Shown here: positions 128 to 43,738 of the stretch, piece by piece
How positions within the stretch are numbered: the first letter of the stretch is position 1
How the letters are laid out: every line of letters begins with the position of its first letter
DNA from: a virus
IMG/VR virus record: IMGVR_UViG_3300038701_001717
Span: 1 to 43,738 of that record
Length of the DNA: 43,738 nt
Strand: one strand, 5' to 3'
The notes under the pieces: model-generated
Seen by the model: only the letters and a program-made list of their open reading frames with translations
Databases searched by the model: none
What the model was told of the DNA's origin: nothing
Made by a program: the position numbers and the translations under genes

Positions 128-312
128 GAGGTTTCACCGGAGAAAAAAATGAATTGTTTGAGAGTGCTGTTGGAACTGGTTCAGCCGCCGCAGTATTAAA
201 TGCAAGAAATATATCAGAGAATTTGTTTCAATCAGGTCAATACCCAAAAGCTTCTATTAAAAAGTGGGGAAAGAAAGCTCTTAAAAAAATTGTTTCAAAA
301 GGTAAATTGTGA
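1..312 (+). CDS. 3' part of the junction-spanning CDS that starts at 43321 (RVIPI-tag paralog B)
   Basis: Track ORF 10..312 is in frame with 43321..43738. The TTG at position 10 is an internal Leu, not a start. The stop TGA overlaps the GTG of the next gene. Confidence 0.8.
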   Translation, partial: AFKLAEKASNSATKVGKVARPLRKLGTASAAVFIGYGAAKVTRGFTGEKNELFESAVGTGSAAAVLNARNISENLFQSGQYPKASIKKWGKKALKKIVSKGKL

Positions 313-1139
313 GTTTTTTTGAGAACAGTAAAGTAGAGACCCTTGCACAGAATCAGGTTGAGGAAGTGCAGGATCTCAATAAAAGAGAAGTGAAAAAGAT
401 GATGAAGCTCTATAAGAGCATTCGCCTTGAGCTTATTGATAGGCTTCACTCAATGCCAAAGGGAACTTTCACATCTCAGAGAATGAGATCCACTCTTGTT
501 CAAATTGATGCTGCCCTGGTGGAAATGCAGAGAATTCTGGGTAAGGGAATCAAAGAGAGCTCCATGATTCTTGGTGAGAGATCTTCTGAGGATCTCATCA
601 AAGAAATCAACACTTTTGACAAAGAGTTCACTGGTGCTGTTTTCCCACTAGATCTCGATGCTGCCCTGGTGGCTTCAAAGACTTCCAACTTCTTATTTGA
701 AAGACACGAGTCGAGTCTTGAAGCTTATAGCAAAGCTTTAAGACAGGACTTTGCCATGGAGCTTACTGAAGCTGTTTTAACTGGGAAGTCTAATTCTGAG
801 ATAGTAATGGAGCTGGGCCAAAAATTTAAAGGTGAACAATGGAAGCTTGAGCGAATAGCAAGAACAGAGCTCCATAATGTTTACAACATAGCAAAGATGG
901 ATGGAATGAAAGAGGTCAGAGACAGTGGTGATATTCCAGATCTTATGAAAACCCTTTTTCATCCAATGGACAATAGAACTGGAGCCGATTCAAAAGCTCT
1001 TAATCATAAGAATCCGAAGATTCCTATTGATGATCCGTTCAAATTTAAGTGGGGAGATCAGGAAAGAGTCTTTATGGCTCCACCAGATCGGCCAAATGAT
1101 AGAGCCATTTTGCTCCCCTATCGCAAGGACTGGAAATAA
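309..1139 (+). CDS. Phage head morphogenesis protein, SPP1 gp7 / Mu F-like
   Basis: 276 aa. ERIARTELHNVYNIAKMDGMKE is a typical MuF-family core. It sits downstream of the portal and upstream of scaffold and capsid. GTG start in a GTGA overlap. Confidence 0.8.
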   Translation: MSFFENSKVETLAQNQVEEVQDLNKREVKKMMKLYKSIRLELIDRLHSMPKGTFTSQRMRSTLVQIDAALVEMQRILGKGIKESSMILGERSSEDLIKEINTFDKEFTGAVFPLDLDAALVASKTSNFLFERHESSLEAYSKALRQDFAMELTEAVLTGKSNSEIVMELGQKFKGEQWKLERIARTELHNVYNIAKMDGMKEVRDSGDIPDLMKTLFHPMDNRTGADSKALNHKNPKIPIDDPFKFKWGDQERVFMAPPDRPNDRAILLPYRKDWK

Positions 1140-1190: not shown

Positions 1191-1928
1191 ATGTCAGGAA
1201 CAAACGACGACAAAGATAAAAACAAAAATGTAAAGCCTAACCCTGGCGGTGAAGGTGGAGAAGGTGGATCTGGAAACGGTGAAGCTGGAGGAAATGAAGG
1301 CGCAGAAGGTAGCGAAAATCTAAACCCTGGTGGTGAAGGTCAAGGTACTGATGAGTTTGATTATAGTGATCCTGAAAAGGTTCAGAAAGAGCTCAAAAAA
1401 CTACGCAAAGAGAACGCCTCCCGTAGAGTATCTAGCAAAGAGGCCAACGAGAAGCTGGCCAAAATGGAAGAAACTCAAAAGAAATTAAAGGTCGCTTTGG
1501 GCCTTGAGGAAGAAGACGATCCGGCTGAGCAAGTTGAATCTCTTCGCTCTCAAAACGAAGCTTTACAGATGGAAATACAGCTCAACTCGATTGCGAGTGA
1601 ATTGGAAATTCCGGCGAAAGGTCAAAAGTATTTTAAATTTTTGATCCATGATCGTTTAAGTGAATTAGAAGAAGGTGAAGAACTTTCAGATGAGGATCTT
1701 GCCGAGATCGCCAAGGAAGTAAAGGGAATGGGTGGAAATGCCCCAAGTTCAACTGGTGTGAACAGTGGTGGCCAAGGTGGCGGTGGAAAAGCCCCATCAA
1801 AAGGTGATGAGATGACTGTTGAACAGTTTGGACAAATGTCTCTCACAGAGAAATCAGCCCTTTACCAAAAAAATCCAAAAGAGTATGAGCGCCTATTTTC
1901 AGCAGCAAAAGAAAAAGGGTTAGTTTAA
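1191..1928 (+). CDS. Capsid scaffolding protein (coiled coil with Gly/Glu-rich low-complexity ends)
   Basis: 245 aa. The N-terminus is NPGGEGGEGG low complexity, followed by KELKKLRKENASRR...EALQMEIQL helices. It lies immediately upstream of the major capsid gene. RBS GGGAGGAG. Confidence 0.7.
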   Translation: MSGTNDDKDKNKNVKPNPGGEGGEGGSGNGEAGGNEGAEGSENLNPGGEGQGTDEFDYSDPEKVQKELKKLRKENASRRVSSKEANEKLAKMEETQKKLKVALGLEEEDDPAEQVESLRSQNEALQMEIQLNSIASELEIPAKGQKYFKFLIHDRLSELEEGEELSDEDLAEIAKEVKGMGGNAPSSTGVNSGGQGGGGKAPSKGDEMTVEQFGQMSLTEKSALYQKNPKEYERLFSAAKEKGLV

Positions 1929-1942
1929 CTAAGGAGAATTAA

Positions 1943-2854
1943 ATGAGCGCAACTCAATCAAGTGATGTGGCCTTTGTGCCAAAGGTGTGGTCCGACCATA
2001 TAAACGCGTATTTCGACAGAAAAATGGGTTTAGGTTCGTTGGCCATGATGGATAAAACTCTTCAAGGGGAGCCAGGTGATACTGTCAATTTCCCTTACTT
2101 CAAGACTATCGGAGCAGCTCAAGAGCCTGCAGAAAATGAAGGTCTGGAAGTTGAAGCTCTCCAAGATGACGCTTTCAGCGTGACTGTTAAGGAGATCGGG
2201 AAAGCGATTGGTTGGAAAGATAAAGCACGACGCAAGTCTGCTGCCAACAAGCGTGGTATCAATCCGAATGGTCGTCAGGAAGGTGAAGGTCAACGTCAGA
2301 TCTCTCGTGTTTTCGCAGAGAAAGTTGATGCTGACATCATCACTGAGATCAATACCAATGGAAATTATGAAGCTGGTTATGTGGCTACTTCTTCAACTCA
2401 TACTTGTACTGTTCAAAAAATATTACAGTCCAAGATTACCGCTTTCGGTGACAAGCAAAGTGATGCCTTGGCAATCGCAATGCACTCACAGGATTTCTTA
2501 TCCATGATGACGGATTCAAACACTGGCTTTCTAAAAGCTGATGCTAATGATCCTTTTTATGGTCGTCCTGGTTTCGAGGGTCGTTTACTGGGAATGGCGT
2601 TGTTCACTTTGGACACTATGCCAGAGGTTAGCGGTGGAATTGACAGCACGACTGCTTATTACCACTTTATTTTCAAGGCGAATCCTTTCGGGATTTATAT
2701 GGCCGAAGATATGGACCCAGAAATGGATCGAGACATTCTCCATCGTGAGACTATCTTGGCAGCCACAATGTGGTACGGAGTGCTTGCACTTCATGGCAAG
2801 GTTTCTTCTAACGATAAGAGAATTGCTCGCGGAGCCTTCTGCGTATCAGCTTAA
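1943..2854 (+). CDS. Major capsid protein (HK97-fold type)
   Basis: 303 aa. Position after the scaffold, GDTVNFPYFKTIG-type N-terminal region, strong RBS AAGGAG, and a hairpin terminator directly downstream. Confidence 0.8.
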   Translation: MSATQSSDVAFVPKVWSDHINAYFDRKMGLGSLAMMDKTLQGEPGDTVNFPYFKTIGAAQEPAENEGLEVEALQDDAFSVTVKEIGKAIGWKDKARRKSAANKRGINPNGRQEGEGQRQISRVFAEKVDADIITEINTNGNYEAGYVATSSTHTCTVQKILQSKITAFGDKQSDALAIAMHSQDFLSMMTDSNTGFLKADANDPFYGRPGFEGRLLGMALFTLDTMPEVSGGIDSTTAYYHFIFKANPFGIYMAEDMDPEMDRDILHRETILAATMWYGVLALHGKVSSNDKRIARGAFCVSA

Positions 2855-2916: not shown

Positions 2917-3303
2917 ATGTCTTTAAGTAATGACAACAACCGTGGGAAGGTCAGCGTTTATGTGGGGACACTAGCCACTGATGACACTCAAGTTCCCGTT
3001 TGTCACTTCGCAAAAAAGGTGAAAATCCTTTCTGTGAAACTGATTAACAATGCTGTGGTAGCAGCTAATGATTCCAACTATGTTCAGCCTTCTCTCCAAC
3101 ACGTTGGCGGGAACGTAATTGCTGAACTTGACACCAGAGCAGCTCACGAAGGTGCGCTTGCGAAGAATGTTGGGAAAGCAATGAACATCGTTGAGGCCGA
3201 GCAATACGTTGCTGCTGGTTCGGATTTAGAACTTGATTATCAAGAAGCTGGAACAGTGACTCTCACTGCTGCCGTTCTTGAGATCGACTACTTAGAACTT
3301 TAA
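2917..3303 (+). CDS. Hypothetical head-module protein (possible decoration or auxiliary capsid protein)
   Basis: 128 aa with RBS AAGGAG. It is a single gene bracketed by two hairpin terminators next to the capsid gene. I recognised no family motif. Confidence 0.6.
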   Translation: MSLSNDNNRGKVSVYVGTLATDDTQVPVCHFAKKVKILSVKLINNAVVAANDSNYVQPSLQHVGGNVIAELDTRAAHEGALAKNVGKAMNIVEAEQYVAAGSDLELDYQEAGTVTLTAAVLEIDYLEL

Positions 3304-3310
3304 TATTTAG

Positions 3311-3336
3311 AGCGGGGAATTTACCCCGCTTTTTTA
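3311..3336 (+). terminator. Rho-independent terminator
   Basis: AGCGGGG-aattta-CCCCGCT stem followed by TTTTT. Confidence 0.75.
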
Positions 3337-3349
3337 ACGGGAGGATTTT

Positions 3350-3601
3350 ATGGGCGCAACGATGTCTCGTAGAAGAATTAAAGATAAGAAGAAGAAAAAG
3401 ATGACCTTAGTTCCAAATAATGGAGCTGGTGAATCTGAGATTGAGAAGAAAACGAAGAAGAAGACCACAACTAAAAAGGTGACTACTTCTAAGAAGAAAA
3501 CAGCCAAAAAAGCTGCGACTTCTAAAGCTAAAAAGAAAACAAAGAAGAAGGTCACAAAGGCTGCTCCTAAAAAGGCGACCAAGAAGACCAAAAAAAAGTA
3601 A
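3350..3601 (+). CDS. Poly-lysine, histone-H1-tail-like basic protein
   Basis: 83 aa. Sequence is KKKKKMTLVPNNG...KKTKKKTTTKKVTTSKKKTAKKAATSKAKKKTKKKVTKAAPKKATKKTKKK. It is preceded by TTTTAACGGGAGG. The antisense poly-Phe ORF is an artefact. Confidence 0.7.
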   Translation: MGATMSRRRIKDKKKKKMTLVPNNGAGESEIEKKTKKKTTTKKVTTSKKKTAKKAATSKAKKKTKKKVTKAAPKKATKKTKKK

Positions 3602-3614
3602 ACCTTAAGGGGGA

Positions 3615-3971
3615 ATGATGGCTTTCACTGAAACTGAAAAGGTGAAGATCCTAAGATATATAGGGTGGCCACCAACAACTATTGTCAGCACTTCCCTTGA
3701 TTATTCTAAGATTGTATCTGATCGACTTACAAACGCCAGCACAGTCACTCAGGGGCTCGTTAGAGAGCTCCTTGATAGAGTGGAGAAGCTAGACTTAAAA
3801 CTCGATACAGCCATTTCTCGTGCGGGTGTGAAGCAAATTGATGACATCACTCTGAGGGACAATGAGATTGAGATTCTGAGAAAGGAACGTCGAAAGATTT
3901 TCCGAGAGATTGCTCTCCTCGTTAATATAAGAATGATTGGTGGTTCGATGATGGGGACTGTCTGCGTATGA
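3615..3971 (+). CDS. Hypothetical head-tail joining module protein
   Basis: 118 aa with RBS AAGGGGG. Assigned by its position between the head and tail genes. Confidence 0.6.
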   Translation: MMAFTETEKVKILRYIGWPPTTIVSTSLDYSKIVSDRLTNASTVTQGLVRELLDRVEKLDLKLDTAISRAGVKQIDDITLRDNEIEILRKERRKIFREIALLVNIRMIGGSMMGTVCV

Positions 3972-4387
3972 GTGGAATAGTTGATGATCTCAAAGAAGGT
4001 TTAGATGACATCCTTGGAATCAGGGATGACATAGGTGCAGCCAAGCAAGAGGTCTATTTTCTCGAATACGAATTTAGTGGAACTGAACTTGGTGATGGAA
4101 CAAAAACCATGAAGTCAAAGGAGCGGATGCTTCCTACCCCACGAGTAGTCGAGTTCAAGCATCAGCTTGGAATAAAAGAGGGTGGAGCTGTAAAGCAAGG
4201 AGACATCTTACTCAAGATGGTTTCAAAAGCAAAATATCCTGACAAAGCCACTTTGGAGTTTTCAGGTTTAGAGAAGAACGTCGAAAAGTTTTATGAGATT
4301 GGCGGCAGGAAATACCGACCTATAGAGATTACTGAGAAGCATCTCACTTGGTCGATTCTCTGCAGACCATTATCGGGACAGAGGTAA
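3968..4387 (+). CDS. Hypothetical head-tail joining module protein
   Basis: 139 aa. ATGA overlap with the upstream gene. Confidence 0.6.
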   Translation: MSGIVDDLKEGLDDILGIRDDIGAAKQEVYFLEYEFSGTELGDGTKTMKSKERMLPTPRVVEFKHQLGIKEGGAVKQGDILLKMVSKAKYPDKATLEFSGLEKNVEKFYEIGGRKYRPIEITEKHLTWSILCRPLSGQR

Positions 4388-4389
4388 AA

Positions 4390-4848
4390 ATGGCAAAAGA
4401 ACCAGTAAACAAAAAAGGTCAGAAAGTAAGGTTTATCAGGAAAAATGGAAGAGTGATTCCCATTAAAGTAAAAGCTGGATCTTCTGCTGGTGGTACTGGT
4501 CTGAAAGGTAGGAAGAAAAAGTCAAAAGACCCTGCTTTAAGAAAACTAGAGAAAAACGCTTCGTCTTTATCTAAAAAAAGAGGTGCTGCCTATAAAAAGT
4601 CAATGTCTAGAAATAGGGTAGCCAATAAAGTTGGCGTGGCTGGGATGGCTGTGGCTGCGGGATCAGTTCTTTTTGGAAATAAAAAAGGTATCTTGGCAGG
4701 AGTAGCAACAACAGTGGGATCTCTTGGTTTTATCAAGGCAACAGGAGGAAAATCTAGTAAATTATTACGAAAAGAACTGGATGCTTACGATAAAGTAGAT
4801 TCATATAAAGCGAATAAAAAATATCAAAAAAATAGAACAGGAATTTAA
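4390..4848 (+). CDS. Basic Gly/Ala-rich protein, RVIPI-tag paralog C
   Basis: ATG at 4390 after RBS GAGG. The track start at 4348 would overlap the upstream gene. Translation is MAKEPVNKKGQKVRFIRKNGRVIPIKVKAG...VGVAGMAVAAGSVLFGNKKGILAGVATTVGSLGF. Confidence 0.75.
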   Translation: MAKEPVNKKGQKVRFIRKNGRVIPIKVKAGSSAGGTGLKGRKKKSKDPALRKLEKNASSLSKKRGAAYKKSMSRNRVANKVGVAGMAVAAGSVLFGNKKGILAGVATTVGSLGFIKATGGKSSKLLRKELDAYDKVDSYKANKKYQKNRTGI

Positions 4849-4857
4849 GGAGGAATT

Positions 4858-5013
4858 ATGAAAAAAGTAGGTGGAAAAAAATCATTGGATCAATTGGAAA
4901 TCGTTAGTCATCCGCAAAATCACAATGCTGGTTCTGCTAGAAATGGAAAAGCTCGTCCTTGTAATCCAGGTCTGAAGCCAAAGGATTCAACGATGGCGGT
5001 CCCTGGTAAGTAA
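4858..5013 (+). CDS. Small hypothetical protein (51 aa, below the ORF-track cutoff)
   Basis: Strong RBS AAGGAGG 5 nt upstream. Translation is MKKVGGKKSLDQLEIVSHPQNHNAGSARNGKARPCNPGLKPKDSTMAVPGK. TAATG overlap with the next gene. Confidence 0.55.
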   Translation: MKKVGGKKSLDQLEIVSHPQNHNAGSARNGKARPCNPGLKPKDSTMAVPGK

Positions 5014-5477
5014 TGGCTGTAAAAACGGTAAGACTTGAGGACTTTGCCAAAACTCTAGAAGTTGATGGCAAGCAAAGAACGGAAGATTTCAGGAAAGCGG
5101 TTGTCCGTGGAGCCATGAGATCCATTCCTGATCTTGTAGAAAATTCCCCAGTTGATACCGGACTCTATGCGGCTTCGTGGAGATTCGAGCCGAAAGAGTG
5201 GGGAGCTATCATTGGAAACTTTGCTCCTCATGCAGCAATTATCGAGGAAGGTGCAAGACCCTTCACTCCTCCCATGGGGCCTTTATTGGCGTGGGCAAAA
5301 AGGGTTTTAAAAGATCCAAGCACCCCACCAAATTATTCAAGCGAAGTCTGGGCTCTTGCTAAAGGAACCCAACTAAAAATTCAAAAGTATGGCATGAAGC
5401 CAAAGCACATTTTGCAGAAGCAAATTCCAGAGATTCTGGACAACATTAAAGATGAATATGAGAGGCTTCAAAAATGA
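5013..5477 (+). CDS. HK97 gp10-like head-tail / tail-completion protein
   Basis: 154 aa. SPVDTGLYAASWRF...APHAAIIEEGARP matches the HK97-gp10-family DTG-L..S / vE.G signature. Confidence 0.7.
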   Translation: MAVKTVRLEDFAKTLEVDGKQRTEDFRKAVVRGAMRSIPDLVENSPVDTGLYAASWRFEPKEWGAIIGNFAPHAAIIEEGARPFTPPMGPLLAWAKRVLKDPSTPPNYSSEVWALAKGTQLKIQKYGMKPKHILQKQIPEILDNIKDEYERLQK

Positions 5478-8912: not shown

Positions 8913-10768
8913 GCGCACCTTTAGCATATAAGGTTTTAACGGAGTTTAGGTTTGAGATCGGTAGTGCCGTTACAAACACAAGAACTCTTGCCGGAGAGGT
9001 CAACAAGATCTCGGATGCTGCTGGTAATGCTCAACAAGCTCTCACTGGTGTTGGAGTCTCACTCGTTCAAAGTTTTGGCGTTGGATATTTGACTGTTGGT
9101 GGAACTATTTTTAAAGCTTTTATGGCTTCTGAAAAGTTCTATCAATCTCAATTAAAATTATCCAATATCTTCTTATCAAAAAAATTCTTTGAAGGTCCAC
9201 AGGCTTTCCAACAATCAATGGCGGCATCGGCTGATGCTTTGGAAAGAATGAAGAGTACCGCAAGGCAGTTTTCACTTCCAGCAACAGCTCTGGCTGGATT
9301 GTCTAGTTCTATAGGTGCGGCTTTGACCGTGAAGGGTCTTGATGACTCTTCACTATCAAAATCGACGGATCTTTCAAGAGCCTTCTTAAAATCAGCTCCA
9401 ATCCTTTTGCCTGGGCAGGACCCATTGGCATACCAAGGGCAGCTTATGAATTTAGTTTCTGGCCGAGCTAATATTGGAGGAACTCTTGTTCAAAGATTAA
9501 TGGATGAGACAAGTGCCATGAAGCCTTTTGCCGGAAAGGGTGGAACTGGAAAGTTCAATGCTCTTGATCCTGCAAAGCGTCTTGATGTACTTACGAAATC
9601 ACTCGATCAGTTCTCTAAGCAAGTAAAGGTCAATGATGCAATTGCAAAGTCATTTACTGGTCAAATGCAAAGAATGAGAGATAACCTTTTTAGTATGTTT
9701 TCAATTTTCAGAAAGATTGGTGATGCCATCAGGATTCCACTCACTGACATCATAAAAAATGTTAATGATTGGATCGAAACTCATGGTGAGAAGATCGCAA
9801 ATAATATGGGAAGTATGCTTGAAAGAATCTTGCGTGATCCTGTTAAGTTGTTTGTAAACCTTCAAACTTTAAAAGGTATGGGATCAGATTTTAGTGCAGC
9901 TGGAGCTTTTTTGAAATTGCTTACTCAACTGGAGTTCGCTGCATTTGCTGCCACAGGTCTTGGAGGCTTGGGTCTTCTTGGTGGTTTTTCTGCGGGGGCC
10001 GTTAAATTTGGTAATATAGTCAAAAAAATAGTTGGATGGTTTTTGCCTCTCTCTACTTTAGCCTCTGGTGGGATGATTGCTGGAATAGGAAAGTTATTGT
10101 TAGCTGTTGGTAGACTCTTTGGATTCATCTTCTTTATGCTTCAAACTATAACAATGGCTGGAGCAAAGGCGAGTGTGCATAATAAGCTTTGGCTTGCTGA
10201 AAACAGCTCCAAGGTGAGTGACATCATTGTCAAATTGAGCAAAGCCTTTTCTGCAATCCTGTATCCTATAACTGCCGGAATGGACGCTTTGGCTGAAGTA
10301 ATATCTCTATTCTTTCGATTAGATTTATCAGGAAATTTTTTGATAGCAACTTTTGAGATTTTGGCATCAGTTCTGGAATTTCTTGGGAAAGTAGTTCTTA
10401 GAATCTTTGGATTCATCCAGGGTGTTGTCGATATGCTGACGCAGATACCTTTGAACCTTTCGAGCTGGATGTCCGGTGATATTGGTTTCAGCGATATGCT
10501 AAGTCAGATGGGTGATACATTCATGCGAGGTTGGGACTACCACTATAATAAAATCTATGGTGATGAAAATGAAGTTCCTTATGCACCAGGTAAAGGTAAG
10601 ACATCCAAAAACACGACTTACATGAATGTGAATATGTATAATCAGTTCAAGGAGCAGATGGAGCCGGATAGAATCGCCTTCACCCTTCAAGAACAACTTT
10701 TCAAGGCGGCGACTAACCCTAGAGGGACTAAACGTCGATCATTTCAGAGAGGATCATTGAAAAAATAG
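8909..10768 (+). CDS. Tail tape measure protein
   Basis: 619 aa. Helical N-terminal half and a Gly/Ala/Leu hydrophobic central region. Lies after the chaperone gene. Confidence 0.8.
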   Translation: MSAPLAYKVLTEFRFEIGSAVTNTRTLAGEVNKISDAAGNAQQALTGVGVSLVQSFGVGYLTVGGTIFKAFMASEKFYQSQLKLSNIFLSKKFFEGPQAFQQSMAASADALERMKSTARQFSLPATALAGLSSSIGAALTVKGLDDSSLSKSTDLSRAFLKSAPILLPGQDPLAYQGQLMNLVSGRANIGGTLVQRLMDETSAMKPFAGKGGTGKFNALDPAKRLDVLTKSLDQFSKQVKVNDAIAKSFTGQMQRMRDNLFSMFSIFRKIGDAIRIPLTDIIKNVNDWIETHGEKIANNMGSMLERILRDPVKLFVNLQTLKGMGSDFSAAGAFLKLLTQLEFAAFAATGLGGLGLLGGFSAGAVKFGNIVKKIVGWFLPLSTLASGGMIAGIGKLLLAVGRLFGFIFFMLQTITMAGAKASVHNKLWLAENSSKVSDIIVKLSKAFSAILYPITAGMDALAEVISLFFRLDLSGNFLIATFEILASVLEFLGKVVLRIFGFIQGVVDMLTQIPLNLSSWMSGDIGFSDMLSQMGDTFMRGWDYHYNKIYGDENEVPYAPGKGKTSKNTTYMNVNMYNQFKEQMEPDRIAFTLQEQLFKAATNPRGTKRRSFQRGSLKK

Positions 10769-18955: not shown

Positions 18956-20287
18956 ATGGCTAATAAAGTTAGAAAACAATATGAAATAGTGGCTCCAAAT
19001 TCTGGTAGCGGGATGACTCAAGAGTGGGTTTGCCCAGCAAATGTAAGCTCTATAAATGTCATAGGACTTAATCGCAGAAAAATAATGAGTGCAGCCAGGA
19101 CTGCTGGATTTATTGAGCAAAATGGCCAAATTTATATGATGGGAGATAATGTTCACGGACAACTTGGAGATAACACTGTTGTTCCAAAATCTTCAGCGAC
19201 ATTGGTTGTCGGTGCAGCTTCAGGACTTAGCTTTAAAGAGATTGCGGTTCAAACAGAAGTTGCAACTTCAAAATGCCACTCTTTAGCTTTAGATTATTAT
19301 GGAAGACTTTGGGCTTGGGGCTTGAACGAGCATGGCCAGCTCGGAGACCAAACTGTAGTCCCAAAATCAACTCCAGTCTTAATTGCTACAGATCAAAAAT
19401 TTAGAAAAATAGCTCTATCAAATAACAGCTCTTTTGCCATTGATGTAAATGATGACCTTTATGCTTGGGGCGACAACACTCACGGACAAATAGGTGATGA
19501 TACTAATGTTCCTAAGTCATCACCAGTTATTGTTGATAGTTCTAAAAAATGGAGATCTGTTTTCACTTCTGAACAATACGGATGTTTTGCAATAACTCAA
19601 GATGGAGACCTCTATTCATGGGGTGTTGGAGAAGATAGTTTAGCAAATGGCAATCTTGCAGTGTCAACTCCAACTCTTGTCACGGGAACTCAGGGATATA
19701 AAGAAATATCGGCTGGCTTAGTGTCTGTTGGAATAAAGTATGATGGCTCAACTTTTGTGTGGGGGTATGGAGACTCTTATGGATTAGGGGATGGAACTCT
19801 TACAGCAAAATCAACTCCAACAGCAATCGCTGGTGGCCATCAGTTCATAAGTGTTGCATCAGGAAATGGTCATTGCTTGGGCCTAAAATCCAATGGTGAA
19901 ATTTGGGCATGGGGAAGAAATGGCCAGGGTCAACTAGGTACTGACGATACTGTAGACACCTCAAGTCCTGTTCTTGTTGCTGGATCTGGAACCGATAGAA
20001 TATTTAAACACATTCAATGTGGAACTCTTCATTCCTGGGGTGTTGATGATTCAGGAGCTCTCTTTTACTGGGGAACCGGATCTGGAGGAAAAGGAGCTGC
20101 TGGTGGTGGTGGCACTTTCGCTAGTTCTCCAACTCCTGTTGTTAATAACCATATAGTGTTTTCTTCTGATAAAGTTGAAAATCAAAAAATCAATTTTCCT
20201 GTAACACCAGGGCAGACATATAAAGTGAAAAACTTTGCGTCGATGGTTTTAGGATCGGAGATTTTAGTCTTAGAATATGATTCATAA
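18956..20287 (+). CDS. RCC1-repeat (7-blade beta-propeller) protein, putative receptor-binding tail protein
   Basis: 443 aa. Repeated blade motif: HGQLGDNTVVPKSSATLV, EHGQLGDQTVVPKSTPVLI, THGQIGDDTNVPKSSPVIV, GQGQLGTDDTVDTSSPVLV and others. Confidence 0.8.
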   Translation: MANKVRKQYEIVAPNSGSGMTQEWVCPANVSSINVIGLNRRKIMSAARTAGFIEQNGQIYMMGDNVHGQLGDNTVVPKSSATLVVGAASGLSFKEIAVQTEVATSKCHSLALDYYGRLWAWGLNEHGQLGDQTVVPKSTPVLIATDQKFRKIALSNNSSFAIDVNDDLYAWGDNTHGQIGDDTNVPKSSPVIVDSSKKWRSVFTSEQYGCFAITQDGDLYSWGVGEDSLANGNLAVSTPTLVTGTQGYKEISAGLVSVGIKYDGSTFVWGYGDSYGLGDGTLTAKSTPTAIAGGHQFISVASGNGHCLGLKSNGEIWAWGRNGQGQLGTDDTVDTSSPVLVAGSGTDRIFKHIQCGTLHSWGVDDSGALFYWGTGSGGKGAAGGGGTFASSPTPVVNNHIVFSSDKVENQKINFPVTPGQTYKVKNFASMVLGSEILVLEYDS

Positions 20288-22436: not shown

Positions 22437-22740
22437 TGGAGCAACTTGTTCAAAAGTTAAAATCGCCGACCCTGAGTGGTGCGGTGATATTGGAAAATGG
22501 GGCGCTGAATGTGTCCAATCATTCGATAAGACCAAAGGTCGTTCTTTAACAAAGCCAGAGTGGGATAAAATTAGAATAGGCTGGATGTGTACGAAGCATG
22601 AAAGCGTATCAAATTGGGCTGGAGCCATTACTAAGCTCTGTGCAGATACCAGATATTGCACCAAAGAAATCAAAGAAAAAATCAACAATTTAAACAGTAA
22701 TCTAGAAAAAATAAAAAAGAAAACGGGAGTTTCTGAATGA
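22360..22740 (+). CDS. o-spanin candidate (outer-membrane lipoprotein, Cys-rich)
   Basis: MKKNSQNYAKNIGKLCLTLSALIFLSGATC is a signal peptide plus a lipobox-like Cys (codon 22447..22449) placed just after the i-spanin stop. The start lies inside the upstream gene (overlapped architecture). Confidence 0.55.
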   Translation: MKKNSQNYAKNIGKLCLTLSALIFLSGATCSKVKIADPEWCGDIGKWGAECVQSFDKTKGRSLTKPEWDKIRIGWMCTKHESVSNWAGAITKLCADTRYCTKEIKEKINNLNSNLEKIKKKTGVSE

Positions 22741-23897
22741 TGAACAATAAGTTTTTCGATCATATTTTAAAAGTAGAGGGTGGTTGGTCAGATCACAAGA
22801 ATGATGCTGGCGGTGCGACCATGATGGGAATTACAAAAAGAACTTACGAGGCTTGGCTCGGTAGATCAGTCTCTAAAAATGAATTAAGAAATATCTCAAA
22901 AAAAGAAGTCTTAGATATATATAAGGCTCGCTATTATGATGTGAACAGAACTGCTCAATTGGATAATGAATTTGTTCGACTTGCTCTGTTCGATCAAGCG
23001 GTGAACAGAGGACCAAGAACTGGAGCTAAATTGTTGCAAGAGACTTGTAATCTTTTTGGAAAAAATCTTTCTGTTGATGGTCGAGTGGGTAATCTAACTT
23101 TAGCAGCCGCCAATTCTATTGATCCAAAAGAGCTTGGTATGGACTTTGTTCAAAAAGCACAGCATGGTTATGTGAACATTGTTAAATCAAAGAGCTCTCA
23201 AATGGTTTTTCTATCTGGATGGATGAACCGAACCCATGTTTTATTGGATGATTATGCTGGATATGTTGGTCAGTTTGATGGATCAATGGCAAAAACTCCT
23301 GAAGAAGATCCCGCAGATATTATTGAGCTTGGGTTATTTTCCAAGATTGTAAAACACAACCCTACAATAAACAAAATTGGTCTTACAAAAGCTTTATCTT
23401 TTTACGATCACCCTAGCGTGACAGATAAAAAGTATATGACCTTTGTGGACTTTGATATAAGGTCGAGCAAGCCAAGAATGTGGGTTCTAAATATGAGAAC
23501 AGGTGAAGCTATCTTCCATCTTAAAGTGGCTCATGGAAAATACTCAGACCCAAATCACGATGGTTATGCTGATAAGTATTCCAATAAACCTGGATCTGGA
23601 CAGAGTTCTCTTGGGGCAATGGTTGTTGGTGAGAAATATGGAAGTAGTGATGATGGTTGGAGCAAATTTCCAGTGGCCACAAAACTCAGAGGAATAGAGC
23701 CAGGTCTTAATGATAATGTTTATAAAAGAGCTGTTGTCTTCCATTCTTCAAAATATGTGAATCAGTTCAATAAATTAATTTCTGGAAGATCATTGGGATG
23801 CTTTGCTGTTGATGATGATGTCGCAAAGAGAGTTCAAGAATATATTTATGGAGGAACTTTACTCTATGCTTATGATAAGGATTTTTTATCAGCCTAA
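22737..23897 (+). CDS. Endolysin: GH108 muramidase plus PG_binding_3, fused to a YkuD_2 L,D-transpeptidase-fold domain
   Basis: 386 aa. ILKVEGGWSDHKNDAGGATMMGITKRTYEAW is the GH108 motif. The C-terminus VAHGKYSD...SNKPGSGQSSLGAMVVGEKYGSS...VVFHSSKYVN...GRSLGCFAV carries the His...SxGC LDT catalytic signature (Cys codon 23799..23801). Confidence 0.8.
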   Translation: MMNNKFFDHILKVEGGWSDHKNDAGGATMMGITKRTYEAWLGRSVSKNELRNISKKEVLDIYKARYYDVNRTAQLDNEFVRLALFDQAVNRGPRTGAKLLQETCNLFGKNLSVDGRVGNLTLAAANSIDPKELGMDFVQKAQHGYVNIVKSKSSQMVFLSGWMNRTHVLLDDYAGYVGQFDGSMAKTPEEDPADIIELGLFSKIVKHNPTINKIGLTKALSFYDHPSVTDKKYMTFVDFDIRSSKPRMWVLNMRTGEAIFHLKVAHGKYSDPNHDGYADKYSNKPGSGQSSLGAMVVGEKYGSSDDGWSKFPVATKLRGIEPGLNDNVYKRAVVFHSSKYVNQFNKLISGRSLGCFAVDDDVAKRVQEYIYGGTLLYAYDKDFLSA

Positions 23898-39060: not shown

Positions 39061-39733
39061 AAAGAAGGCCACAAAAAAGACAGCTAAAAAAGCTACTGTG
39101 AAAAAACCACAGAAGAAGGTCCTTACTCAACTTCAAGAGAATTTCTTGAGAGAATATGTTGTTATTCGTAACGCCACTCAAGCAGCCAAGCGAGCTGGTG
39201 TAAAAGGTAACAATCTCAAACAGCGTGGCCACCAGATTCTCCACGACCCTTTAGTACAAGAAAAATTAAAAGAGTTCACCCAGAAGAAGTGGAATGAAAG
39301 AACAGTGGCTTTTGACCGGATGCTGGATCGACTTGAGTTCCTTGCTTGTGATGATTTTGAAGAAGCTGACATCACAGATATTTTGAAGTGGGACGAACAT
39401 GACAATATAAACATGACCAAATATGAGGATCTATCCCCACAAGCTAGAAGGTCCATAAAGGCCCTCAAACAAGTCATTTCCAAATCTGGGGATAAGGGTG
39501 TCGCTGTTGAAATGAGGGACACAGGACAAGCCCTGGCGGCCATGAAGATGTTTGCTGATTACATTGGCCTCAAAGAATACATGAAAGAAATGAAAGCAAC
39601 GGAGAAGGAGCTGGATGAGAGAGTTAGACAAGGCTCTCGTGAAAGAGCTAAATCAACTAGAATGGGACGACTTCTTGAAAATGCTCGACTCTACAAAGAG
39701 CGAGCAGGATCAAAACGATCTGATAATTCATAG
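39035..39733 (+). CDS. terS: Terminase small subunit (Terminase_2-like)
   Basis: LTQLQENFLREYVVIRNATQAAKRAGVKGNNLKQRGHQILHDPLVQEKL. Start at ATG 39035 or ATG 39041. Confidence 0.75.
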   Translation: MGMAKKKSKKKATKKTAKKATVKKPQKKVLTQLQENFLREYVVIRNATQAAKRAGVKGNNLKQRGHQILHDPLVQEKLKEFTQKKWNERTVAFDRMLDRLEFLACDDFEEADITDILKWDEHDNINMTKYEDLSPQARRSIKALKQVISKSGDKGVAVEMRDTGQALAAMKMFADYIGLKEYMKEMKATEKELDERVRQGSRERAKSTRMGRLLENARLYKERAGSKRSDNS

Positions 39734-41273
39734 GTGCGCGGAGGATATTAGAGGCTTCGCAATTCTCTTTTTCCCCCACTATTGCACAAGGAAATTTAAT
39801 GTTTTTCACGAAGAGAGTTTTGAGAACTATCAATGGAATGAGAGAGACGTTCGACGGGTTCGCGCTGCACCTCGTGGAGCGGCAAAGTCTACGCTCGCCT
39901 GTCTCATTAAGCCGATTCACGATGTCTGCTATGACCTGGAAAAATTCATCGTTGTCATATCAGCAACAACTGCGCTGGCAAATAAAAAGCTCAAGAATGT
40001 TCGGCAGGAGATACAGTTCAATCCTTTTTTGGCTGATGTATATGGAACTCATTTTCCAACTAAAAAGCCTGGTGCACAGGAATTTGAAGCCCACTCAGAC
40101 ATATCTTCAACATACTTTGTGGCGTTGGGAAAGGGGTCTGCAGTTCGAGGGATCTCTATTGGACAGTACAGACCCACTAAACTTGTACTCGATGATGTCG
40201 AAGACGCAAGAGAAGTTCTCAATGAGATGCTTAGGCAGAAAGATAATGATTGGTTCTTTGAGGATGTTCTTAAAGCTGGTGACACTGGTACAAACGTGGA
40301 CTTCGTCGGAACAGTACTTCACCCCGAATCTTTACTAAAAAAGCTCCTCCAGAATCCTAGATATGATGTGAAGCCCGTTTATCAGTCCATAATGAGATGG
40401 TCAGAGCGTGAAGATCTCTGGGAAAAGTGGCGGGAGATCTATAGAGACATTGACCTTCCTGATCGAGCAGCCAAGGCCCAAGCCTTCTATTCAATGAATA
40501 AAGACGAAATGATTAAAAACACTTTAGTCATGTGGCCTGAAAAAGAGTCCTATCTGGATCTTATGATTGAGATGGAAGAGATTGGCCGCCGAGCTTTTAT
40601 GAAAGAGAAGCAGAATGATCCTGTTGGTTCAAATGACACGATCTTTGAGAACTTTCATTGGTACAGAGAAGAAGAAGATGGACTAAGAATCGAGAGTAAT
40701 GGAGCTCTGATTCTTTGGAAAGAGTTGTTTCCTGTTGGTGCGATTGATCCTGCTACTGGACAAAATGGATCGAAAGTTCAAAAGGGAAAACTGCCGGATT
40801 ACACTTGTATTCCCGTGGGGTTCAAAGACATGAAAAAACGTCTTTTTGTTCACCACGATTTTACAAAAAGGGTGTCGCCGTCGAAGGCTATTACAGAGAT
40901 TTTTAATCTCTACGACAAGTATGAGTTTGAGAAATTTGCCGTAGAGACAAATTTATTCAGAAACTTGCTGCTTCCTAACATCAGGGATGAGCAGAGGCGC
41001 AGGGAGAAGAAGACAGGTAAGAACTTTAAAATATCGTTTTATGATGTGGTTCAAACGGAGAATAAACACGAGCGGATCTATAGAATGGAACCGAAAGTGA
41101 ATCATGGCTGGATATTATTCAACAGAGCATTGAGTGCTCCTTTTAAGAATATGTTCAGAGATTTTCCATTTGCAGATCACGACGATGCACCGGATGCAGT
41201 CGAGATCATGTGGAACTTAATTCATAACCGATACAAACCATCGGCAATGAACGTCAGTGCGATGAACAGGTGA
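39615..41273 (+). CDS. terL: Terminase large subunit
   Basis: 552 aa. Walker A-like RAAPRGAAKST, then LVLDDVED (Walker B-like). The C-terminal nuclease half includes DHDDAPDA. The ATG at 39615 has an AAGGAG RBS. ATG 39681 is an alternative. Confidence 0.85.
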   Translation: MRELDKALVKELNQLEWDDFLKMLDSTKSEQDQNDLIIHRCAEDIRGFAILFFPHYCTRKFNVFHEESFENYQWNERDVRRVRAAPRGAAKSTLACLIKPIHDVCYDLEKFIVVISATTALANKKLKNVRQEIQFNPFLADVYGTHFPTKKPGAQEFEAHSDISSTYFVALGKGSAVRGISIGQYRPTKLVLDDVEDAREVLNEMLRQKDNDWFFEDVLKAGDTGTNVDFVGTVLHPESLLKKLLQNPRYDVKPVYQSIMRWSEREDLWEKWREIYRDIDLPDRAAKAQAFYSMNKDEMIKNTLVMWPEKESYLDLMIEMEEIGRRAFMKEKQNDPVGSNDTIFENFHWYREEEDGLRIESNGALILWKELFPVGAIDPATGQNGSKVQKGKLPDYTCIPVGFKDMKKRLFVHHDFTKRVSPSKAITEIFNLYDKYEFEKFAVETNLFRNLLLPNIRDEQRRREKKTGKNFKISFYDVVQTENKHERIYRMEPKVNHGWILFNRALSAPFKNMFRDFPFADHDDAPDAVEIMWNLIHNRYKPSAMNVSAMNR

Positions 41274-41300: not shown

Positions 41301-42785
41301 ATGTTTGGTTGGAGTAATAAGAAAAAGGGTGGCTATAAAAGGAGTCGTTCTGGCCAAAGGCAAAAGAACAATCTTGGTATTATTGGTCTACCTAATGAAA
41401 AGAAAAAGCTTAAGTTCAGAGATGAGAGGCTGGATCTTCTTGATTCTTATTATGAGAACACTCAGTACGATGATTTAATGGAGTGGAGTGAAGAATGTTA
41501 TAGTGATGGAACTTTCATTCCTGTACGTCAAAGATGCCCAAGAATTAAAGCTCCTATTGCAAAAATGATGTGCTCAAGACTTACATCAATGATGATTGGT
41601 GGATCTGCTTTCCCAGATACTCCTATTGCTGATATGCCAGATGAGCAAGAGTTCATTAATGCTGTTGTCAGAGAATCTCATGTTAAGTTCAGAATTTTAG
41701 AGCCGTTCAGAAGAATGTTGAATACTGGATCAGTTTTTATTCGATTCTACCTATCCGGTGGAACAATGAAAGTGGAGCACTTTCTCTCAAAATACTGTTA
41801 CCCCACTTTTGATGATTCCGATCAGCTTGAAAAAGTCATTGTGAAATATGTCTTTGAAGATCCTGAAGAACTGGATAAAGACGGAAACTTCAAAAAGAAG
41901 TGGTTCAAGATGGAGCTCAATAAGATGAGCGAAATCATGTATGACAATCCAGACTTCGATCCTGACGCAAAGGATGAGCCTGAGTTCACAGTAGTTGCCC
42001 AGGTTGACCACGAGCTAGGGTTTGTTCAAGGAACTTGGTTCAGGACCTCTGAGGATCGACACAGTCCTGATGGTTATTCCATGATAGCTGACTGTTTAGA
42101 TTTCATTGATGAAATGTGCTATTCGATGTCCCAGAGCTCCACTGCTGTTGAATACAATCAAGATCCACAGCTTGCCTTTAGCTCAATGGATAGTGAGGAA
42201 CTTGAGAAAGTGATCCGATCAGCGGCTAAGTCTTGGAACCTTGGAAGAGAAGGAAAAGCCGAGTTCCTAGAGTCCAATCTCAGTGGTGTTGAAAAAGCAA
42301 TAGAGCTTCGAGACAAATTCCGTCAGAACATTCAGGACTTCATGCGAATCCTATTGATGGACCCTGAGAAGATTGTTGGGAACGCTCAGAGTGCAAAAGC
42401 AATGGAAGTTCTTCATGGCCCCATGGTGGATCTTGTTCGGGAACTTCGTGGAGTTATCGAGCCACAATTGAAAGAGCTTCTAATAAAAATGGAAGTAGTA
42501 CTTCTCCATGCCAATGAGAAAGGGATGGATCTTCCTTTTGATATTCCTCCAGGTTGGAGACCTCAAACAATAGTTTTCAGTATCAAGTGGAAACCAATAT
42601 TTCCTGAGACAGTTGCAGATCAACAAGCAAGGGTCAGTCTTGCAGTGAGTGCTAAGAACGCAGGACTTCTTTCTCGTGAAACAGCTCTTAAGAATGTCGC
42701 TGATATTTTTGGAGTGGAAGACATCGAACTTGAAATGCAAATGGTTGATGATGACCCAGTAACCAATCCATTTGGAGGATTTTAG
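41301..42785 (+). CDS. Portal protein
   Basis: 494 aa. Lies immediately after the large terminase and upstream of the MuF-like gene. Size and acidic helical composition are portal-like. Confidence 0.75.
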   Translation: MFGWSNKKKGGYKRSRSGQRQKNNLGIIGLPNEKKKLKFRDERLDLLDSYYENTQYDDLMEWSEECYSDGTFIPVRQRCPRIKAPIAKMMCSRLTSMMIGGSAFPDTPIADMPDEQEFINAVVRESHVKFRILEPFRRMLNTGSVFIRFYLSGGTMKVEHFLSKYCYPTFDDSDQLEKVIVKYVFEDPEELDKDGNFKKKWFKMELNKMSEIMYDNPDFDPDAKDEPEFTVVAQVDHELGFVQGTWFRTSEDRHSPDGYSMIADCLDFIDEMCYSMSQSSTAVEYNQDPQLAFSSMDSEELEKVIRSAAKSWNLGREGKAEFLESNLSGVEKAIELRDKFRQNIQDFMRILLMDPEKIVGNAQSAKAMEVLHGPMVDLVRELRGVIEPQLKELLIKMEVVLLHANEKGMDLPFDIPPGWRPQTIVFSIKWKPIFPETVADQQARVSLAVSAKNAGLLSRETALKNVADIFGVEDIELEMQMVDDDPVTNPFGGF

Positions 42786-43324
42786 TGGCCAAAAAGAAGG
42801 ATGAAAATAAGCGCGTAATATTCCGTCGAGTTGGCGGACGTGTCATTCCAATTACTTTGGCTGGTGGTGCAGCTCTAGAAGCTTCTAGAAGAAAAACTGT
42901 ATATAGGGGGCAGAACCTTGTTGTTAAGCAAAGAAAATCAATATTCACAAGAACCACAACTTTAAAAGCTATCCGTAGTTATCCACTTTTAAATTCATCA
43001 AGAGTTGTGGGGAAAGCTGTTTTTCAGAAGCAAAAAAAGAACAGAGCAAAAATTAAATATTTTGAGGCTCTTGATAAGAGATCAGCTCCAGCTCTTTTTT
43101 CATCAATGAATAAGAGTGCGAAGAAACAGAAAATAAAATTTTTCAATTCAATTGCAGTCAATCCAAGAGTTGCTGACATAACAAAAGCAAGAAAAGGAAA
43201 ACTTCTATCTATATCAAAATCAGGAGTACGATTTGTAGGAGCTAGAGCGGCCAAAGGTGAAATAACTAGAGCAAGAAAAGGTTATGTTCGAGCAGGCATA
43301 AAAGCAATAATGAAGGTGAAATGA
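42785..43324 (+). CDS. Basic protein, RVIPI-tag paralog A
   Basis: 179 aa. GTG start overlaps the portal TAG. Translation is MAKKKDENKRVIFRRVGGRVIPITLAGGAALEAS... and is very Lys/Arg rich. Confidence 0.75.
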   Translation: MAKKKDENKRVIFRRVGGRVIPITLAGGAALEASRRKTVYRGQNLVVKQRKSIFTRTTTLKAIRSYPLLNSSRVVGKAVFQKQKKNRAKIKYFEALDKRSAPALFSSMNKSAKKQKIKFFNSIAVNPRVADITKARKGKLLSISKSGVRFVGARAAKGEITRARKGYVRAGIKAIMKVK

Positions 43325-43738
43325 TGAAAAAACGTGATCAAAATAAAAGAGTTATCTTTCGCAGAGTGAGAGGTCGGATCATTCCAATAAAAATTGCTAC
43401 AAATAAAAGAACCAACAGTCTTTCTGAAGGCGGGAAGTATGTAGCTGGTGGAGCTGCTATAGCTGCAGGATCGGGAAAAATTTATAAAGAGGTGAATAAA
43501 TTCTCTACTCGTAAAAGCATGAAAGCTTTCAGATCTCTTGAGAGAATATCAAACTATCCAAAAGCTGGTGGCTCTCAACTTACATTTTTTCAAAGGCAAA
43601 GACAGTTTAAGGCTTTTAAATTGGCAGAAAAGGCTAGCAACTCAGCAACAAAAGTTGGCAAGGTTGCAAGGCCATTGAGAAAACTTGGCACTGCATCAGC
43701 AGCAGTTTTTATTGGCTATGGAGCTGCAAAAGTCACTA
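43321..43738 (+). CDS. Basic Gly/Ala-rich morphogenesis-module protein, RVIPI-tag paralog B (5' part; continues over the circular junction to the stop at 310..312, about 200 aa in total)
   Basis: ATGATG start overlaps the upstream TGA. Translation is MMKKRDQNKRVIFRRVRGRIIPIKIATNKR...FKAFKLAEKASNS. Position 43621 equals position 10, and the offset from 43321 is divisible by 3. Confidence 0.8.
   Translation, partial: MMKKRDQNKRVIFRRVRGRIIPIKIATNKRTNSLSEGGKYVAGGAAIAAGSGKIYKEVNKFSTRKSMKAFRSLERISNYPKAGGSQLTFFQRQRQFKAFKLAEKASNSATKVGKVARPLRKLGTASAAVFIGYGAAKVT
43612..43738. repeat. Terminal direct repeat copy 2, an exact duplicate of 1..127
   Basis: Same 127-nt string as the window start. The unit genome length is therefore 43611 bp. 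Confidence 0.95.

Follow-up and report, generated by a model that had tools for sequence, protein, structure and literature searches.

The IMG/VR virus record IMGVR_UViG_3300038701_001717, analysed here over its whole length of 43,738 nucleotides (the window), contains three genes whose products, p1, p2 and p3, open with almost the same peptide. This peptide, hereafter the tag, comprises 13 residues (V-x-F-[IR]-R-x-x-G-R-[IV]-[IV]-P-I) and lies 10-13 residues from the start codon. The three genes are embedded in a head module (Table 1): p1 and p2 stand between the genes for the portal and for a MuF-type minor head protein, and p3 just upstream of a Neck1/tail-completion gene. An earlier reading of this DNA from its letters alone (the original prediction) had described the same context, and the three open reading frames (ORFs) that it listed are all present, with N-termini as it quoted them.

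A search of the six-frame translation of the window with the tag pattern returned exactly three matches, all at the N-termini of ORFs, and a degenerate DNA pattern of the tag likewise matched three times, against 0.00 expected from 100 shuffles. The tags of p1 and p2 have 11 of 13 residues, 2 of 13 codons and 27 of 39 nucleotides in common, which bears out the claim that the peptide is conserved over diverged nucleotides. When 104 distinct DNA sequences of the tag from relatives were compared, the invariant V, F, R, G, R, P and I each proved to be encoded by all of their synonymous codons. Because residues are shared while codons differ, these comparisons indicate that selection acts on the tag as a peptide, not on an element in the DNA; the codon divergence also excludes that the tag is conserved as a recombination site at the nucleotide level. 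We regard the existence and modularity of the tag as close to certain.

The similarity of p1, p2 and p3 to one another is limited to the first ~26 residues (BLASTP), and none of the three matches a family in Pfam, PHROGs, NCBIfam or PADLOC, in line with the original prediction, which recognised no named family in the tag. All are rich in Lys and Arg, as had been noted (22–27% of residues), with isoelectric points (pI) of 11.0–11.9, p1 being the most basic (11.9) and p3 the least (11.0). The original prediction also described, in each protein, hydrophobic stretches that look like glycine-zipper membrane segments. Gly/Ala-rich apolar stretches are indeed found in p2 (residues 40-52, 122-136 and 152-163) and p3 (81-96 and 100-115), but at 12-16 residues, with a Kyte-Doolittle 17-residue mean of 1.2-1.56, they are short and the membrane label is overstated; p1 has essentially none beyond the tag, its only apolar stretch (20-31) overlapping it. 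Behind the tag, p1 has a segment that is conserved and a GNAT-like remnant that is degenerate; p3 has a long helical hairpin with two 16-residue Gly/Ala-rich apolar segments; and in p2 the 3' part of the gene (128..312) supplies apolar helices 2 and 3 and a basic C-terminal helix. The body of p2 is kept in a p2 family of relatives, including L004 and L113, the latter with a different N-terminal motif (below), and a tagged gene at the p3 site is common among relatives.

The ends of the window are identical, with positions 1-127 repeated exactly at 43612-43738. This 127-bp direct repeat is an overlap left by assembly: the window holds a complete phage genome, circular or terminally redundant and 43,611 bp long, and an ORF that crosses the junction must therefore leave out one copy. 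The original prediction was right to carry p2 across the junction, but a plain join to base 1 breaks the frame, and positions 1-127 have to be skipped. The same contig is present in the Logan assembly of run SRR15330770, and p2 is also called on Logan contig SRR15330770_591, as 199 amino acids from the second Met. Consecutive genes from the portal to MuF overlap: portal and p1 at TAGTG (42775-42790), p1 and p2 at ATGA (43318-43326), p2 and MuF at GTGA (306-314). The conserved C-terminus of the portal (...NPFGGF) ends in the codons GGAGGA, which form the Shine-Dalgarno sequence for the GTG start of p1. The scaffold and coat genes, unlike these, have spacers of their own. The overlaps fit coupled, portal-like (low) expression of the tagged genes, although they do not prove it.

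Table 1. Coordinates of the tagged genes, their tags and other features of the window
Feature	Position	Strand	Evidence or remark
p1, 179-aa tagged protein	42785..43324	+	ORF and translation
Tag of p1, FRR flavour, VIFRRVGGRVIPI	42815..42853	+	pattern match
p2, 200-aa tagged protein	43321..43738 plus 128..312	+	join = 603 nt, in frame
Tag of p2, FRR flavour, VIFRRVRGRIIPI	43351..43389	+	pattern match
p3, 152-aa tagged protein	4390..4848	+	ORF and translation
Tag of p3, FIR flavour, VRFIRKNGRVIPI	4426..4464	+	pattern match
Portal protein, SPP1-type, candidate receptor	41301..42785	+	phrog_64 at 2.9e-22; PF05133 recorded on source contig
MuF / SPP1 gp7-like minor head protein, candidate receptor	309..1139	+	PF04233 29.7 bits (cut-off 29.6); TIGR01641 E = 1.3e-4
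Scaffolding protein, candidate receptor	1191..1928	+	phrog_172 and phrog_4708
Major capsid protein	1943..2854	+	phrog_544 at 1.7e-25; tblastn matches to annotated major capsid proteins
Large terminase	39615..41273	+	phrog_38 at 7.7e-77
Several small ORFs without assignment	2917-4387		
Neck1 / tail-completion protein	5013-5477		shortly downstream of p3
83-aa Lys-rich ORF, untagged	3350-3601	+	
RCC1-repeat (beta-propeller) protein	18956-20287	+	
Endolysin-family protein	22737-23897	+	

Across the window and its relatives (L001-L157) the tag occurs in two flavours, V[RK]FIR[KV]xG and V[VI]FRR[IV]xG (FIR and FRR), in which positions 4 and 6 swap hydrophobic and basic residues. We modelled p2 and p3 with AlphaFold2 from single sequences. 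The tag of p2 was predicted to form strands 12-16 and 19-23 with a block score of 74 in the predicted local distance difference test (pLDDT), the highest in a protein that is otherwise helical at low confidence; that of p3 was predicted as strands 12-18 and 21-26 (block pLDDT 82). Both flavours are thus predicted to be a two-stranded beta-hairpin with the x-G pair at the turn, and in each model no other block scores as well as the tag. One face of the hairpin would hold, in these models, the invariant V, F, R and P together with one Ile/Val, and the opposite face the positions that distinguish the flavours (F-I-R-K versus F-R-R-I). Beyond the tag, the p3 model consists of helices 48-94 and 98-149, a hairpin that turns between the two apolar segments, with pLDDT values of 50-82 that are highest at those segments (76-82). 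A Foldseek search of the p3 model against viral structures gave no match below E = 0.25.

We were interested in how widely the tag is distributed and where in proteins it lies. A scan of IMG/VR with the degenerate pattern yielded 83 stretches (the tag-selected loci), many with 2-4 matches on one strand, and a census by a local hidden Markov model of the tag in related metagenomic phage contigs counted 421 tags, representing 281 distinct proteins. In 233 of these the tag is at the N-terminus, no more than ~30 residues past the start, and in 45 at the C-terminus, no more than about 5 residues from the stop codon; two more scored at both ends and one carries it at 33 amino acids from the predicted start, with none deeper. 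When the tag was masked, 275 proteins fell into 166 BLAST clusters, one of which has the tag at the N-terminus of 8 members and at the C-terminus of 7. Conservation stops directly past P-I-[RK]. The idea that various cargo proteins share one modular tag, proposed from three copies, is strongly supported by this much larger set. Most tagged proteins are small and basic (median length 179 amino acids, median pI 11.4), with Gly/Ala-rich apolar helices.

A looser pattern found five proteins with a tag at each end. Among the double-tagged proteins, the small ones (L043, L029, L077 and P0029; 171–187 amino acids) have a conserved STFPxF(F/Y)RELGF core, and the large ones (L149 and L014; 309–330 amino acids) an H-x-G-N ... 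D-T-[GA] pattern. That the large ones might be kinase-like was considered, but Pfam gave no support for it.

Tagged genes are inserted at three hot spots, namely between the large terminase and portal genes, between the portal and MuF genes, and in the connector region, and they sit within about 5 kb of the gene for the major capsid protein. The ratio of FIR to FRR varies with the site, from 28:5 in the connector region to 45:55 between portal and MuF and 8:31 for C-terminal tags, a bias that may reflect two receptor sites or two orientations.

The two ends at which the tag is found also bear on the idea that it is a maturation-protease site, removed during assembly and conserved through the specificity of the protease. 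There is a precedent, in that the targeting sequence of phage T4 is cut off by the prohead protease. In the window, however, the stretch from terminase to neck yielded no gene for a prohead protease, and the only 'protease' PHROG match was to the MuF domain of fusion families. The coat protein, of 303 amino acids and with a separate scaffold gene, belongs to a layout that usually does without proteolytic maturation, and a cut at a C-terminal tag would release only a tiny peptide. We consider a protease site highly improbable.

What lies behind the tag is variable. Three contigs have a portal with 84% identity to that of the window; in these, the orthologues of tagged proteins are 46-85% identical over the first 26 residues and 14-46% over the remainder. 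The extreme case is p1 and a 285-amino-acid GNAT-type protein of relative L001, with 85% identity up to residue 26 and 14% beyond it. These alignments indicate that the cargo behind a constant tag is exchanged between close relatives. Some of this cargo resembles enzymes. The family of the L001 protein carries GNAT motif A, one of its members, P0054, matches Pfam Acetyltransf_1 at 23.5 bits, above the cut-off of 20.7, and a profile of this GNAT-cargo family run against the PDB returned sub-significant E-values only, nearly all of them for acetyltransferases. Eight tagged proteins have an invariant HExxH plus a downstream Glu (best Pfam match Tox-MPTase4, E = 0.0026), P0052 matches R2K-clade ATP-grasp models (E = 3.7e-5), and L006 gives a weak PARP catalytic/Tpt1-like match (E = 0.003), with the same 'HGT' motif in L008; these three matches are below their cut-offs. 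On such profile and motif evidence we take the GNAT assignment of relatives' cargo to be solid and treat the zincin-like, ATP-grasp-like and ADP-ribosyltransferase (ART)-like assignments as motif-supported leads. The genes for such cargo lie either between those for portal and MuF or in the connector region, and the domains are of types known from MuF-fused effectors or polyvalent proteins (PMC5512222).

In p1 itself, comparison with the GNAT-cargo family by hhalign gave 98% probability, driven by residues 1-60, with a gap at motif A. We also observed that p1 and the GNAT-type cargo at 5113-5970 of L001 have in common both the tag and a post-tag segment of the A..RT.RVY.KGN.TI type. A reading of p1 as a GNAT acetyltransferase was rejected: motif A (Q/R-x-x-G-x-G/A) is absent and there is no Pfam GNAT match. 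From its sequence, p1 has the look of a shortened member of the GNAT-type cargo and, because motif A is absent, it is probably not an active acetyltransferase.

The apolar stretches of the cargo raise the alternative that these are late host-membrane proteins with a part in the timing of lysis, in superinfection exclusion or in remodelling of the envelope, the tag being a cytoplasmic anchor or sorting signal. An apolar stretch (Kyte-Doolittle 17-residue mean of at least 1.2) is present in 81% of the tagged proteins, with a median of two runs per protein, flanked by many Lys and Arg. Yet runs of 12-16 Gly/Ala-rich residues are short for a bilayer span, the genes overlap those for portal and MuF and stand apart from the lysis genes at 22737-23897, and enzyme-like cargo and C-termini bear the tag as well. 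A conserved sequence is not a feature of Sec signals, and in its FIR flavour the tag is without the twin arginine of twin-arginine translocation (Tat) signals. This alternative is therefore, in our estimate, very unlikely. A Tat or Sec signal was likewise rejected, as the tag can be C-terminal and in its FIR flavour has no twin Arg, and in p2 the first apolar run begins 17 residues past the tag.

The basic character of the same proteins could instead point to histone-like condensers of DNA, in which the hairpin would be a nucleic-acid-binding arm that contacts DNA as do the N-terminal hairpins of AbrB/SpoVT-type regulators. The tag does resemble what we take to be the first hairpin of AbrB (VRKVDELGRVVIPIELR; V-R-x-h-x-x-x-G-R-V-V-I-P), a matter of resemblance only. 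It contains 3-5 Arg or Lys, and the proteins have pI values of 11–12. To judge from the title of a reference in PMC6316719, gp7 of SPP1 binds DNA. Most invariant positions of the tag nevertheless hold hydrophobic or structural residues (V, F, G, P, I), while the basic positions 2, 4 and 6 vary; the remainder of the proteins is so basic that no conserved motif would be needed for binding to DNA; and the tag is also carried by enzyme-like domains, at either terminus. A DNA-binding arm accordingly seems to us distinctly improbable. As for an AbrB/SpoVT/MazE domain proper, which we rejected, the tag is half the ~45-50-residue length, being without the second half of the fold; it is one residue shorter between G-R and P, and no Pfam match of the AbrB/MazE (PF04014) type appeared even at E <= 10.

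We were next concerned with the company that the tag keeps. Nearly all tag-selected loci with enough DNA carry portal, MuF and major capsid proteins homologous to those of the window. For a set unbiased by the tag, loci were chosen by portal similarity alone, and 65 of them had at least 2 kb after the portal. The original prediction had held that its reading would fall if the tag were not conserved in related phages, and this check did not refute it: in 61 of these 65 loci the 3.5 kb that follow the portal encode 1-6 tags, without exception on the strand of the portal. True tags were confined to contigs that carry head genes of this lineage. Control DNA comprising 770 kb of unrelated phage and bacterial sequence gave 0 tag calls, and in 596 Gb of bacterial and archaeal genomes true tags occurred only on phage-like contigs, most of them of 43–46 kb, that had been binned into metagenome-assembled genomes (MAGs), apart from seven internal chance matches. 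A profile built from the three tag sequences found 51 matches at E <= 0.001 among 1.84 billion representative proteins, and in all of them except a spurious repeat protein the tag is terminal. A word-indexed search of 5.8 billion proteins, an insensitive method, returned 24 short matches to a tag-region profile and, for p2, only p2 itself. The tag motif occurs in no phage record and no PDB sequence, and nothing relevant to it was found in the searchable full-text literature. Searched by tblastn against 50,697 phage records, p2 and MuF had no match. The portal and major capsid proteins are only ~24-28% identical to those of isolates, and these isolates lack the arrangement described here.

The MAGs into which the clade contigs from GTDB (L158-L174) had been binned are unrelated to one another (Chlamydiae, Bacteriovoracaceae, Chitinivibrionales and Pacearchaeota), and one Bacteriovoracaceae MAG holds three such contigs. 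This placement is probably mis-binning and says nothing about the host. No prophage was found among the GTDB genome matches.

Four of the portal-selected relatives (L113, L119, L120 and L127) are tagless after the portal. In L113 (4270-4974) and L119 (4111-4689) a p2-type protein starts with another motif, GSRGGHIIGHTKSGAPIY, without the hairpin tag; these two phages also have extended portal C-termini, an observation that we did not use as evidence. L120 and L127 have unrelated small ORFs at this site. This second motif (consensus GEGSRGGKVIGHTKSGKPIY ... FS.(E/Q)DH.DA) was observed on 86 IMG/VR stretches (L175-L254), mostly phage contigs of 40-170 kb, often 2–3 times in one His/Lys-rich protein and not at a terminus; the one protein tested had no NCBIfam name, and the motif strings are absent from searchable papers.

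The number of tagged genes per genome speaks to another possibility, that the tag is a hetero-oligomerisation module whose hairpins pair, as a sheet or barrel, to build an inner core or ejection channel, with no docking on a conserved head protein. Genomes usually encode several tagged proteins (the 1–6 just after the portal), those with a tag at each end would permit chains or rings to form, and there are hydrophobic residues on both faces of the hairpin. Against this, 14 of the 65 portal-selected relatives, L004 and L131 among them, encode only one tagged gene directly behind the portal and so no tagged partner, although self-association would still be open to them, and the strict link to one portal/MuF/major capsid protein lineage would go unexplained. 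We think oligomerisation unlikely as the role of the tag, and note that it is compatible with, not exclusive of, the interpretation that we favour.

That interpretation, which we hold with moderate confidence, is that the tag is a modular docking signal which loads interchangeable cargo into the capsid. We favour it because the tag is the sole conserved feature of a diverse protein set, occurs at either end of a protein, is confined to phages with one head module, and belongs to genes expressed from within the structural operon, and because part of the cargo consists of enzymes that would be useful only if present at infection and resembles effectors already known to be delivered in virions. 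The tag would be a self-contained beta-hairpin docking peptide placed at the N- or C-terminus. On late expression it would bind a conserved part of the assembling head of this lineage, most likely the portal/MuF vertex, with the scaffold as an alternative, and its carrier would thereby enter the procapsid and later exit along with the DNA. A route of this kind is known in SPP1, whose MuF homologue gp7 binds the portal and is brought into the procapsid in this way; the same portal-gp7 route is thought to serve toxins that are fused to gp7-like proteins (PMC6316719). The three proteins of the window probably lie beside the DNA as internal or ejection proteins and may have a role at the host envelope; in relatives, the tag rides on interchangeable cassettes, including the GNAT-, zincin-, ATP-grasp- and ART-like domains. 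The broader proposition, that throughout this uncultured clade of ~43-kb, contractile-tailed phages an end-independent 13-residue hairpin serves as a plug-and-play loading signal, so that any tagged protein is packed and injected, is a serious possibility that falls somewhat short of probable.

Several results weigh against capsid loading. L120 and L127 keep all head genes without a tagged gene after the portal, and the tag system must therefore be dispensable, or accessory. We looked for a receptor by comparing columns of the portal, MuF, scaffold, major capsid and large terminase proteins that are conserved in at least 90% of tag-bearing phages with the four tagless relatives; no conserved column is changed in all four, few are changed in two, all of them isolated single positions, and no partner was identified in this way. 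The cargo of p1, p2 and p3 has no recognisable function, most enzyme assignments in relatives fall under the curated cut-offs, and PDB profile searches found no relative of the zincin and p2 families. Overall confidence in the structural models is low (mean pLDDT 46 for p2 and 66 for p3). Finally, our searches found no cultured relative of the clade, no clade proteome and no virion-level detection of tagged proteins.

The remainder of the window is that of a contractile-tailed phage. All large ORFs are on the + strand, with contractile-tail-type baseplate genes downstream of the Neck1/tail-completion gene. The RCC1-repeat protein, encoded after the baseplate genes, is probably a fibre or receptor-binding component, and an endolysin-family protein follows. 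No integrase was found among ~30 scanned ORFs, a scan that excluded the ORFs at 30 to 39.6 kb. The 83-amino-acid untagged ORF has an extremely Lys-rich, histone-H1-like tail (KKTAKKAATSKAKKKTKKKVTKAAPKKATKKTKKK) and lies between an unassigned 128-amino-acid ORF of the head module and the connector genes; L001 has a counterpart in the same position (9596-9868) with the same N-terminus (MGATMSRRR.KDKK). It may be another DNA-associated virion protein.

The tag invites comparison with four groups of known systems. One parallel in concept is the capsid-targeting sequence (CTS) of T4, carried by the internal proteins IPI-III and by Alt, which is likewise a short terminal peptide and the only feature common to diverse, fast-evolving proteins encoded with the head genes. 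The CTS suffices to load small basic or effector proteins into the prohead, ART among them (PMC3012670; PMC5512222). It is N-terminal only, whereas 45 proteins carry the present tag at the C-terminus, and it binds the scaffolding core and is cleaved by a protease for which we found no gene among the head genes here. The two peptides show no sequence similarity, and ours is a predicted beta-hairpin in an SPP1-like head module with MuF. No homology of p1, p2 or p3 to the CTS or to the internal proteins was found in PHROG or Pfam, nor by tblastn against phage records. We conclude that the tag is not a member of the T4 CTS family, because homology is lacking, C-terminal placement is possible and no protease gene was found.

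A different parallel is offered by phage P1, which packages the Dar antirestriction proteins, and by the ejection proteins of P22, T7 and N4. In these phages, sets of accessory or ejection proteins become part of the head and are delivered along with the DNA, and some of them cross the envelope by means of apolar segments (PMC9024508; PMC8402733; PMC5512222). These proteins, unlike those described here, have no common short tag and depend on ordered protein-protein interactions or large domains. Encapsulin cargo-loading peptides are short, C- or N-terminal, and bring unrelated enzymes into an HK97-fold shell (PMC8346489). As with the tag, a terminal peptide marks cargo that is encoded beside the gene for an HK97-fold shell. 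Encapsulins, however, are cellular compartments without DNA, portal or tail, the peptide docks to a site on the shell protein, and the motifs are unrelated. The present system is not an encapsulin, because terminase, portal and tail genes are present, together with those for a baseplate.

A parallel in cargo is found with the MuF-fused polymorphic toxins and polyvalent proteins, effectors presumed to be capsid-bound through the portal-MuF interaction (PMC5576092; PMC5512222; PMC6316719). In both cases variable effector-type domains (metallopeptidase, ART and others) are encoded beside portal and MuF genes. There, the effector is covalently joined to MuF; here, the tagged proteins are separate polypeptides without a MuF match, and the MuF protein of the window, at 276 amino acids, consists of the MuF domain only. 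Should MuF or the portal prove to be its receptor, the tag would amount to a non-covalent form of this arrangement that serves multiple cargos. The tag is therefore none of the T4 CTS family, a MuF fusion, an encapsulin system or an AbrB domain, and in concept it is like the first three.

Should capsid loading be confirmed, a simple loading rule would hold for a whole lineage, where the choice of accessory proteins is understood in few model phages. Virion-delivered effectors, likely enzymes of counter-defence or host takeover, could then be read directly from metagenomes, and most of the 166 cargo clusters are without known function. The 13-residue peptide is also a candidate tool for loading foreign proteins into phage capsids. 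As a phage analogue of encapsulin peptides and the non-covalent counterpart of MuF-fused toxins, the tag would place covalent and non-covalent answers to one delivery problem side by side.

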